From the IMG/VR virus record IMGVR_UViG_3300045988_141150: 64,000 nt of DNA; one strand, 5' to 3'. Each line of letters begins with the position of its first letter. Positions within the stretch are counted from its first letter, which is position 1. The position numbers were made by a program, and so were the translations under genes. Of this stretch, positions 238 to 591 are shown piece after piece. The notes under the pieces were generated by a model that did no database searches, was not told where the DNA came from, and saw only the letters and a list, made by a program, of their open reading frames with translations. Source of the DNA: a virus.

Positions 238-591
238 TTCGGGGTTTACTTGGTTCCCCGACATTGGACTTAGTAGTTCCTTTCGCCCTCATAGCGGAAA
301 GCTGTTAAGAGCCGTCACAAGGCTCGTGAGGGTTTAATCGTGTATAATCCCACAATGCACGAGCGTGAAAACCAACCTGTCGTAAAGACATCTGTAATAG
401 GCAGAGTAGACATATATACCCCCTTTAATTAATTGTTAAACTAGGGCAACTCAAATCATATGAGTCTTAGGTGAGGTGCAATCCCTCACATGTCCTTTGC
501 TGTAGGTTTCGTTAGTTCTTTTCTTCCTACAGCGCATACAAATTTATATCTCCGGAGGGTGTTGCCACTCCTTAGACTTCACCCTCATTAT
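238..591. other. Non-coding, hairpin-rich region between bona fide tRNAs; several tRNA-like fragments and stable stem-loops; unassigned structured RNA(s)
   Basis: No ORF with RBS. Seen: GCCCTCA…TGAGGGT acceptor-like pairing enclosing GAGCC-GTCACAA-GGCTC (about 298-345); GTGAGG-TGCAATC-CCTCAC; CTGTAGG…CCTACAG; GAGGGTG…CACCCTC. None completes a canonical 4-arm cloverleaf by eye. Confidence 0.3.

Follow-up and report, generated by a model that had tools for sequence, protein, structure and literature searches.

At the start of a 64,000-nucleotide stretch of viral DNA (IMG/VR record IMGVR_UViG_3300045988_141150; we will call the whole stretch the window), positions 239-591 encode a structured non-coding RNA that lies between a tRNA-Gln(UUG) gene and a tRNA-like element. 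Judging from sequence comparisons, this RNA represents a new family that is not in Rfam, and it falls within a known kind, the structured RNAs that are embedded in phage tRNA clusters. Its conserved center is a 49-nt three-way junction (285-333), which is identical with a fold that a first-pass annotation had reported as a GCCCTCA/TGAGGGT helix enclosing GAGCC-GTCACAA-GGCTC. That annotation had proposed that the region contains structured non-coding RNA, and the conservation of the region, the stability of its fold, and the covariation of this first pair of helices confirm it. Taken as a whole, our account of the RNA (a new family that is released by tRNA processing and has a tRNA-related role) has, in our estimate, an even chance of being the best explanation.

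Conservation of the RNA and its three-way junction

An exact 29-mer from 239-591 is present in four IMG/VR contigs, and a search with the DUF3310 protein that is encoded just upstream in those contigs yielded 80 loci. With nhmmer, we found the whole 353-nt stretch in at least 79 loci, with strand and location constant throughout. We will refer to the phages with this window-type form of the RNA as the 60-kb family, and to individual loci or contigs by labels such as L107. Across 68 unique versions, the mean pairwise identity of 239-591 is 95.6%, as compared to 93.2% for the neighboring tRNA-Gln, and the flanking DUF3310 protein is only 70-99% identical across the same loci. Because 239-591 contains indels of 1, 1, 1, 3, 4, and 7 nt and no open reading frame (ORF) is conserved, it is non-coding. 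The + strand folds more stably than shuffled sequences do (z = -2.65; for the - strand, z = -3.10).

More divergent copies, from about 14 lineages, came from Dulem virus 39 and from pattern scans of IMG/VR, GTDB genomes, and metagenomes. These lineages have only a core of about 70 nt in common. The core is present in at least 120 IMG/VR contigs; among GenBank phages, Dulem virus 39 is the only record that has it, and its copy is divergent. Neither 239-591 (at E values up to 10) nor any of eight divergent loci (at E values up to 1) has a match in Rfam 15, and the core is unmatched in the first 200 of the 408 supplementary files of a catalog of structured RNAs (PMC8040213).

The three-way junction includes all of the segments that had been named in that first helix pair:

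285-291 with 327-333, + strand: P1, the outer stem (GCCCTCA with TGAGGGT); 5 of 7 pairs changed on both sides
292, + strand: U between P1 and P2
293-295 with 301-303, + strand: P2, with loop GGAAA at 296-300; weakly supported
304-308, + strand: J2/3, GUUAA
309-313 with 321-325, + strand: P3 (GAGCC with GGCTC), with loop GUCACAA (loop 3; GTCACAA in the DNA) at 314-320; 3 of 5 pairs changed on both sides
326, + strand: G, a 1-nt linker from P3 to P1

The stems change between lineages and stay paired. P1 is 6-7 bp long and occurs as CCCTCA/TGAGGG, CCCCA/TGGGG, CCCAC/GTGGG, CCACC/GGTGG, CCTAT/ATAGG, CCCCT/AGGGG, or CCACAC/GTGTGG. Similarly, P3 occurs as GAGCC/GGCTC, TAGCC/GGCTA, GGACC/GGTCC, AAGCC/GGCTT, AGACC/GGTCT, or GGATC/GGTCC. 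In an alignment of 33 distinct core sequences, 96.8% of the cells at paired positions are paired and 9 of the 15 pairs have changed on both sides. None of 500 shuffles reached these values, and sliding the partner by 1-3 columns left at most 48% of cells paired.

While the stems covary freely, about 25 unpaired bases of the core are invariant. Specifically, the 17-nt junction strand UAGCGGAAAGCUGUUAA, the loop GUCACAA, and the linker G are unchanged between the roughly 14 lineages. Part of this invariance is due to ascertainment, because the patterns that found the most divergent homologs fixed GGAAA, GTTAA, and GTCACAA. Positions 292-295 and 302-303 were left free in two of the pattern scans and still showed no variation, and the 60-kb family, which was collected via a protein anchor and is unbiased, has only rare changes in the invariant segments. 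We also took a census of loop 3 that was unbiased as to the loop and that drew on an IMG/VR scan which re-collected the window-type family. Among the matches listed, the 151 unique versions have GUCACAA (140), GCCACAA (6), GUCGCAA (3), or CUCACAA (2), and the last three bases, CAA, are constant in all of them. The third pair of P2 (295:301) is C-G, U-G, or U-A, but C-A in L149 and L150. Fixed unpaired bases together with variable stems are typical of RNAs that have a specific partner or are catalytic; the core has this pattern, with constant junction and loop bases on stems that are exchanged, which suggests a specific partner or a catalytic fold here as well.

We summarized the core in a covariance model, R1, which was built from our alignment A2 with the window's sequence as part of the seed. 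The window has the defining elements (P1 and P3 around UAGYGGAAARCUGUUAA, the loop GUCACAA, and the linker G), and 268-337 scores 93.4 bits (E = 1.3e-27). Each carrier locus has exactly one copy; R1 finds no further copy in the 64-kb window, and none in tRNA arrays of unrelated phages. In a metagenome contig (L183, 3828-3897), the core has a window-type 5' strand of P1 (ACCCTCA) and a 3' strand like that of L132 (ATAGGTT), which breaks the helix; this core is a recombinant or an assembly chimera.

Some other pairings were considered and dropped. We do not accept as the main fold a long-range helix of 326-332 with 582-588, which appeared in single-sequence and RNAalifold folds, since P1 also covaries where a lineage is missing that 3' partner. 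The covariation of P1 also speaks against a hairpin from RNAalifold (281-286 with 294-299), which was linked to an apparent correlation of 285 with 295. A pseudoknot of loop 3 (UCAC) with GUGA at 365-368 fails because all three variants of C315 have A368, which is a mismatch. In a mutual-information scan for long-range pairs among the 68 sequences of the family, which vary little, the top pairs were not complementary.

We conclude that the RNA is read from the + strand because the common polymorphisms at paired positions preserve pairing only on that strand. Within the 60-kb family, reading the + strand, 19 pairs show G-U types (286 cells), as compared to 9 pairs with A-C types (17 cells, mostly singletons). 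For instance, pair 310:324 is A-U in 62 sequences and G-U in 6. At the level of sequence, this shows that the RNA of 239-591 is a + strand product.

These results also bear on the possibility that the region has no function. According to the first-pass annotation, it might turn out to be a degraded tRNA remnant or an attachment-site scar; decayed tRNA genes or a minus-strand leader would be similar explanations. A module at 444-495 does look like a tRNA that has lost its D arm, the reverse complement of 262-284 resembles a ribosome-binding site followed by ATG, and a minus-strand ORF is listed at 148..264. But 239-591 is more conserved than the adjacent tRNA, its helices are maintained by compensatory changes, its wobble pairs fit the + strand only, and the minus-strand ORF has just 4 codons in the L107 type. 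We consider the absence of a function, and with it the minus-strand leader or ORF, to be refuted.

Architecture and proposed release of the RNA

We folded the complete inter-tRNA segments of eight lineages, with P1 and P3 enforced. All eight have a 5' hairpin of unrelated sequence that starts within 1-4 nt of the upstream tRNA and a 3' hairpin that stops 0-5 nt short of the downstream one. The order that recurs is a 5' hairpin, a pyrimidine tract, the three-way junction, another hairpin, variable modules, often a second UCCUUUG motif, and a 3' hairpin. The total length ranges from 185 to 451 nt, and the outer parts differ between lineages. In the folded lineages, the pyrimidine tract is CCUUUC, CUCCUUUC, or CCUCCUUU (or CCUUCU in L110), and it is unpaired in most of the eight folds. 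Nearly all of the lineages have a YCCUUUC or CCUCCUUUC tract immediately 5' of P1.

Because the terminal hairpins are flush with both tRNA boundaries, we suggest that tRNA processing cuts out a discrete, stable RNA. As would be expected for such a product, the RNA is on the same strand as the tRNAs and is directly flanked by them. Also, the upstream tRNA genes do not encode CCA, and the 5' end of the RNA is always U or UU. From this anatomy, we predict that the RNA is co-transcribed with tRNA-Gln(UUG). RNase Z would free the 5' end by cutting after the CCA-less tRNA-Gln, RNase P would free the 3' end by cutting before the next tRNA, and the hairpins at the ends would shield the released RNA from exonucleases. 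In E. coli 3'ETS-leuZ and in MALAT1/mascRNA, a functional non-tRNA RNA owes its ends to cleavage by RNase P, Z, or E at a neighboring tRNA or a structure that resembles one. For the RNA described here, if it is processed in this way, two true tRNAs would set both ends.

Outside the three-way junction, the window's version has these features:

165-238, + strand: tRNA-Gln(UUG), the upstream neighbor and presumed 5' processing boundary; no encoded CCA; called by ARAGORN; 63.4 bits to the Rfam tRNA model
239-261, + strand: H1, the 5'-terminal hairpin (UCGGGG at 239-244 with CCCCGA at 256-261); begins 1 nt after the tRNA
262-284, + strand: single-stranded linker, with ACAUU at 261-265 and the pyrimidine tract UUCCUUUC at 277-284
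338-362, + strand: H5, a hairpin of UCGUGUAU with AUGCACGA, loop AAUCCCACA
363-377, + strand: conserved single strand GCGUGAAAACCAACC, in common with L148 (AUGUGAAAAUCAACC) and L110 (ACGUGAAAAUCAACC)
378-404, + strand: H6 (378-381 with 387-390) and H7 (392-395 with 401-404), from RNAalifold with 68 sequences
405-443, + strand: A/U-rich linker that contains ACCCCCUUU; a 4-nt TTAA indel polymorphism at 425-428
444-495, + strand: lineage-specific three-helix module, with closing helix 444-448 with 491-495, a hairpin at 449-465, and GUGAGG-UGCAAUC-CCUCAC at 471-489
489-497, + strand: second pyrimidine motif, CAUGUCCUU(UG)
498-534, + strand: hairpin UGCUGUAGG / CCUACAGC(G/A), with a variable U-rich loop
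554-586, + strand: 3'-terminal hairpin, 5 nt short of the next tRNA; GAGGGUG at 555-561 with CACCCUC at 580-586, or else a local hairpin at 554-571

The H5-type hairpin is found directly 3' of P1 in several lineages (L148, L155/L178, L120, and L106, besides the window type), with the loop (U)AUCCCAC on quite different stems. Within the family, its pair 343:357 is U-G in 40 sequences, U-A in 21, and C-G in 6. Two hairpins are also present at the position of H6 and H7 in L148 and L110, and within the family, these hairpins have changes from U-A to U-G at 380:388 and 393:403. The single changes in H1 include G-U pairs. The strand 363-377 could pair with 281-286, as in a drawing from ARAGORN's mitochondrial mode (-mt), but this is unsupported beyond the window type, L148, and L110. 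The tract at 277-284 resembles the 3' tail of 16S rRNA (the anti-Shine-Dalgarno sequence), and a second motif of the form CAU..YCUCCUUUG is present in the 3' part of L105, L106, L110, and L148.

The three other hairpins that the first-pass annotation had pointed out are all present: the T-arm-like GTGAGG-TGCAATC-CCTCAC at 471-489, CTGTAGG/CCTACAG inside the hairpin at 498-534, and GAGGGTG at 555-561, which is able to pair with CACCCTC at 580-586. They are confined to the window-type lineage, where their sole support is from wobble-compatible substitutions. In particular, the module at 444-495 is absent from other lineages, and within the family, its pair 446:493 is G-U in 58 sequences and G-C in 10, while 474:486 is A-U in 63 and G-U in 5. 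The loop at 471-489 is unlike a canonical T loop: it has G in the place of psi55, and its first base varies between U and C. In the hairpin at 498-534, the stem is kept and the loop has 1- and 3-nt indels. Covariation is silent as to whether 555-561 pairs with 580-586 or the local hairpin at 554-571 forms.

Carrier phages and the mosaic window

The core is tightly linked to tRNA-Gln. P1 starts 28-78 nt after tRNA-Gln(ttg) in 100 of 119 unique loci, which represent at least eight lineages. In the remaining loci, the core follows tRNA-Ser(tga), a tRNA with the anticodon tta, tRNA-Met, or no called tRNA. The orientation of the RNA is always that of the tRNAs and the genes. In 9-10 lineages, the RNA lies between a conserved ORF of 220 amino acids (aa), which is upstream, and the large terminase, which is downstream. 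This shared location implies that the carriers form one broad clade. The home of this RNA is the tRNA cluster upstream of the packaging genes in a clade of siphophage-like gut phages with genomes of about 60 kb.

Dulem virus 39 has a complete genome of 59.8 kb with an integrase and CI repressors, and its terminase shares 78% identity with the one in the 60-kb family. Next among its cultured relatives are phages of Gram-positive anaerobes, with [Clostridium] innocuum and Eggerthella as hosts. The RNA ligase RtcB precedes the terminase in Dulem virus 39 and in the 60-kb family (including the L120 sublineage). Dulem virus 39 and some of the 60-kb phages have a full-length RtcB, and many others have a deletion of residues ~40-241. 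In the 60-kb family, the tRNA directly 3' of the RNA has the anticodon GTT (Asn), ATT, AAT, or AAC and is otherwise nearly identical between phages.

L191-L198, ~10380-10970; L195, 11265 onward; L208, 560-1765: RtcB RNA ligase, directly upstream of the terminase
L022, 3364-3436; L024, 2258-2330 and 2574-2647; equivalents in L028-L104: tRNA with a switching anticodon, called by ARAGORN, with an unusual A at position 34

Other elements of these regions deserve mention. A tRNA with the anticodon TTA, which ARAGORN labels as "Stop," lies directly before or after the RNA in two lineages (L110, L121, and L177; L120 and L135). Odd tRNA-like genes are found near the RNA in L106 (~2000-2100, - strand), L131 (2746-2861), and L107 (~1300-1400); these include an 86-nt "tRNA-Val(tac)" with an enlarged anticodon loop, a 116-nt tRNA match with an insertion that lies just upstream of a DUF2828 gene, and an element with an acceptor stem and a T arm that ARAGORN does not call. 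L191 (4056-4211) and its equivalents in L192-L198 encode, about 2 kb upstream of the RNA, a 51-aa product with a match to AcrIC5 (an anti-CRISPR family) in Pfam. Finally, eight contigs (L028, L043, L045, L051, L070, L077, L081, and L095) stop at a distance of 11-114 nt from the DUF3310 gene, on its upstream side, as do six others at about 800 nt. Because the ends of IMG/VR contigs cluster there, there may be a physical genome end or a repeat about 0.7 kb upstream of the RNA, which suggests that the module of tRNAs and RNA would then sit at one end of the packaged DNA.

The window itself is a mosaic. Its first 618 positions, which reach into the D arm of the downstream tRNA, are identical in L022 and L023; beyond that point, the two contigs diverge from it. 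Conversely, L199 (191 kb), L201, L205, and L187-L190 are identical to the window from 597 onward; the match runs through a 98-aa gene in L199, L201, and L205, and to the end of the tRNA only in L187-L190. The downstream gene order of L199 is that of the window: the 98-aa gene, a 271-aa gene, a GmrSD-like gene, and a DUF2828 gene. These relatives of the window's second part have an intact tRNA-Lys(UUU), with the acceptor strands GCGGTTG/CAACCGC, and no copy of the RNA within the 4-10 kb that we examined. Because the two parents are identical over the 22 nt from 597 to 618, the crossover lies within them.

This explains the tRNA-like element at ~592-664, which does follow the RNA, as the first-pass annotation had stated, just as tRNA-Gln(ttg) at 165-238 precedes it. 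The element scores 58 bits against the Rfam tRNA model, but over model positions 6-65 only. GCGGTTG, the 5' acceptor strand that it lacks, is not found in 239-591; the strand is missing because this tRNA is a chimeric junction. This chimeric tRNA and the features of the large phage that we will refer to are:

592-664, + strand: chimeric tRNA; the tRNA of the 60-kb family supplies the 5' acceptor strand CGGCATG, and tRNA-Lys(UUU) supplies the remainder; 3 of 7 positions pair between CGGCATG and CAACCGC
2951-3960, 21517-24242, and 40578-42341: reading frames interrupted by TAG; the GmrSD/DUF262-like gene has 3 in-frame TAGs, the others 4-9
4222-5757: DUF2828 + DUF7788 (TROVE/vWA-like) protein, followed at 5875-8373 by an 832-aa protein with Pfam MVP_shoulder and Vault_3

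The 40-nt sequence of the junction is absent from IMG/VR, so the junction in the window is a rare recombinant or an assembly chimera. L200 and L204 have a second breakpoint inside the same tRNA, which indicates that natural exchange at tRNA genes does happen. In either case, tRNA genes are recombination or assembly junctions between unrelated phages. The vault-like pair of genes (DUF2828, then the MVP-like gene) is kept in L200 and L201, and other related contigs end within the DUF2828 gene.

Thus, the RNA is a passenger in the window: bases 1-618 are from the 60-kb family and are joined to a large, TAG-recoded phage. We confirmed in-frame TAG codons in the large phage, and the fact that the interruptions are TAG only is consistent with recoding; there is no tRNA with the anticodon CTA in the window. 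The RNA had been linked to this recoding, and that link is unsupported, because 1-618 belongs to the 60-kb family and the close relatives of the large phage keep tRNA-Lys without the RNA. This is a caution: since the window joins two unrelated phages within a 22-nt stretch of tRNA, inferring function from neighboring genes would have been misleading here.

Comparison with known RNAs and possible functions

As the first-pass annotation had noted, the region holds no canonical tRNA. The core is a tRNA-sized partial fold, but Rfam is silent within 239-591, and ARAGORN in bacterial mode, also with lowered thresholds, finds no tRNA there. Could it be an unconventional decoding tRNA, either a suppressor or intron-containing, as had been proposed, or armless? 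ARAGORN with introns of up to 3000 nt (-i) gives tRNA-Gln only, and no Rfam intron family matches, so the intron-containing form fails. The one call that these searches yield is from the metazoan-mitochondrial mode, an 89-nt "mtRNA-Val(cac)" cloverleaf at 282-370 that uses H5 as its T arm. This cloverleaf ignores P1, which is proven by covariation. Loop 3 resembles an anticodon loop in having U at position 2 and A at position 6, and the variant CUCACAA exists. But there is no cloverleaf with a T arm inside P1, and none of the 151 listed versions of the P3 loop has a CTA, TCA, or TTA anticodon in register. Also, P1 is followed by UUU rather than by a discriminator base and CCA, and the phages that carry the RNA are not the TAG-recoded one. 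In shape, the core is similar to the T-armless and armless tRNAs of nematode mitochondria: it has about 49 nt, an acceptor-like stem of 7 bp, a D-like element (UAGC...GG...GC), and a 5-bp stem with a 7-nt loop. But the nematode tRNAs have a replacement loop of 6-12 nt, whereas 1 nt links P3 to P1 here, which leaves only that nucleotide for the T/V region, and there is no CCA end. The bacterial translation apparatus has no known way to use a T-armless tRNA, and bacterial elongation factors are not known to accept one. A decoding role is close to refuted.

The annotation had also suggested a Y-RNA-like partner for the TROVE/vWA-like DUF2828 protein encoded at 4222-5757. Y RNAs, Ro, and RtcB are encoded together in a bacterial operon (PMC7790460, PMC4201824), and the 60-kb family does encode RtcB. 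In one lineage (L131/L171), a gene for a 35%-identical DUF2828 protein lies about 600 nt downstream of the RNA. A loose association is thus conceivable, but in our reading, this lineage reflects two kinds of cargo that share a tRNA region. The distribution of the RNA largely refutes the proposed partnership. The association in the window stems from the junction at 597-618; L187, L188, and L190, whose DUF2828 proteins are 96-99% identical, and L199-L206, which have the same gene order, lack the RNA. Conversely, apart from L131 and L171, there is no match to DUF2828 in the flanks that we examined of over 100 carriers. Dulem virus 39 lacks DUF2828 (by tblastn against 54.5 kb), and the remaining 5 kb has no ORF of that size other than RtcB. 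DUF2828 is encoded by 695 GenBank phages, and only one GenBank phage, Dulem virus 39, has the core. YrlA Y RNAs have a partial tRNA-like module, are also found in phages, and are linked to RtcB and TROVE proteins (PMC4201824). But in YrlA, the T and D arms are both imitated and Ro is bound by a long terminal stem, whereas our RNA has no T arm inside its outer stem, its ends form separate hairpins instead of one long terminal stem, and its carriers mostly lack a TROVE gene. There is no match to the Y_RNA or YrlA models in Rfam, either in the window (E up to 10) or in the eight divergent loci (E up to 1). Overall, a Y-RNA-like role is most improbable.

Other known classes did not match either. 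There is no transfer-messenger RNA (tmRNA) by ARAGORN -m (also with a lowered threshold) or by Rfam, and no match to the Rfam families for self-cleaving ribozymes or riboswitches or to GOLLD or ROOL. GGAAAG-type motifs and the size of about 350 nt had suggested RNase P RNA, tmRNA, group I introns, 6S RNA, signal recognition particle RNA, or T-boxes, none of which matched in Rfam. The nearest analogs in kind are GOLLD and ROOL and the stable RNAs of phage T4, and in shape, T-armless mitochondrial tRNAs and YrlA modules; our RNA could be assigned to none of these. The species 1 and 2 RNAs of T4 (rnaC and rnaD) are small stable RNAs of about 120-140 nt that are encoded among the tRNA genes, are co-transcribed with the tRNAs, and are cut from the same precursors; their function is unknown. 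Both they and our RNA are in a phage tRNA cluster, but no similarity of sequence or fold is expected, and our RNA is longer (185-451 nt) and has a distinct invariant three-way junction. GOLLD and ROOL are large structured RNAs of unknown function that are common in phages and prophages, often beside tRNA genes (PMC12286853). They are about 580-800 nt long and have Rfam models, whereas our RNA is smaller and is not matched by them. The pRNA of phi29 is another phage RNA that is built on a three-way junction, and our RNA is also beside packaging genes. However, there is no match to the Rfam Phage_pRNA family, no pair of complementary loops that could form a ring, and the phages have an ordinary large terminase.

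What, then, does the RNA do? Our best guess, which is tentative, is that the RNA of 239-591 may imitate a tRNA, as a decoy or adaptor toward some host factor whose substrates are tRNAs. The three-way junction, with its tRNA-like proportions, would be the module that is recognized by a conserved factor of the host's tRNA or translation apparatus, and the RNA would act in a conflict over the cleavage and repair of tRNAs. Its company fits such a conflict: tRNA-Gln(UUG) and the tRNA with the shifting anticodon accompany it, as does RtcB in the window-type family, the L120 sublineage, and Dulem virus 39. A related idea, which is possible but rather unlikely, is that it is a new class of RNA that acts directly on tRNA biology. 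The loop's CAA, which never changes and is a codon for Gln, might be presented to the UUG anticodon of the co-transcribed tRNA-Gln, so that the loop would shield, sense, or escort that tRNA; or the RNA might be a tRNA-shaped decoy against a host anticodon nuclease or another tRNA-directed defense. Several observations count against the account that we favor. There is no Rfam tRNA match over 285-333 and no T arm inside P1, P2 is barely supported, and, as explained above, part of the invariance is due to ascertainment. The L107 type, L143, and L164 have no called upstream tRNA, and it is from anatomy alone that we predict processing. RtcB was not found in the other lineages, several of which had 5 kb of flank examined. 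In most lineages, only phage backbone genes co-occur with the RNA, and no partner protein co-varies with it.

Another possibility, which we take seriously without thinking it likely, is a trans-acting riboregulator or sponge, by analogy with the C-rich small RNAs of Firmicutes. The CCUUUC/CUCCUUU tracts and the C-rich loops (AUCCCAC, ACCCCCUUU) would pair with Shine-Dalgarno regions, with the junction as a scaffold or a site for a chaperone. The tract's presence 5' of P1 in nearly all lineages, its lack of pairing in most of the folds, and the second copy in the 3' half are as expected for such an RNA. Genes of these phages have strong GGAGG-type sites (for instance, at 745-771 of the window), and the best duplex in the window is with a site near 8885 that resembles a ribosome-binding site (-26 kcal/mol, as compared to a mean of -8.2). 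But this would leave both the invariance of the junction and loop 3 and the tight linkage to tRNA-Gln unexplained, and we found no target that co-varies with the RNA. We did consider an exact antisense copy of an initiation region (CAU plus the anti-Shine-Dalgarno tract); because CAU and the tract are anywhere between 3 and 18 nt apart, the linker does not match any one initiation region as a precise antisense copy would. Similarly, 19932-19943, in the middle of the ORF at 19319-20704, is an exact 12-nt complement (CTAAGTCCAATG) of 262-273 in the linker. This is at about chance level over all 12-mers of the query, and since the two parts of the window come from different phages, it is probably due to chance.

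The RNA might instead act in cis on the tRNA or late transcription unit, as a platform for tRNA processing or as a put-like antitermination RNA toward the packaging genes. The fixed slot between the 220-aa gene and the terminase, the common orientation with tRNAs and genes, and a strong terminator downstream in the window (1069-1116) would be consistent with this. But terminal hairpins that are flush with the tRNA boundaries suit an excised product better, and no terminator or promoter is consistently associated with the RNA, so we think that a cis element is unlikely. That the core is a new small ribozyme or a ligand-binding aptamer is very unlikely. About 25 invariant unpaired bases among freely covarying stems is a typical signature of such RNAs. 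Dulem virus 39 also has a RAGATH-27 RNA in the same region, about 500 nt upstream of its divergent copy of our RNA (56032-56115, or L105 2533-2616; 77.2 bits, which is barely over Rfam's gathering score), and the RAGATH-27 motif class is defined by its association with ribozyme-linked genes. However, no known family of ribozymes or riboswitches matches, and in our reading, the order of the hammerhead core does not fit the sequence. There is no following gene for an aptamer to regulate, and tRNA processing would already supply both cuts.

Returning to the decoy or adaptor reading, phage tRNA clusters are usually read as lists of tRNAs, and here they yield a further kind of product in a clade of phages that are common in the human gut. 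Because tRNA-Gln(UUG), a tRNA whose anticodon changes, and, in the window-type family, the L120 sublineage, and Dulem virus 39, RtcB are nearby, the RNA is a testable candidate for a player in the conflict between phages and the tRNA-cleaving defenses of their hosts. If the RNA does act directly on tRNA biology, it would be an RNA-only device for anti-defense or for chaperoning tRNAs, and it would be made by the tRNA-processing machinery itself.

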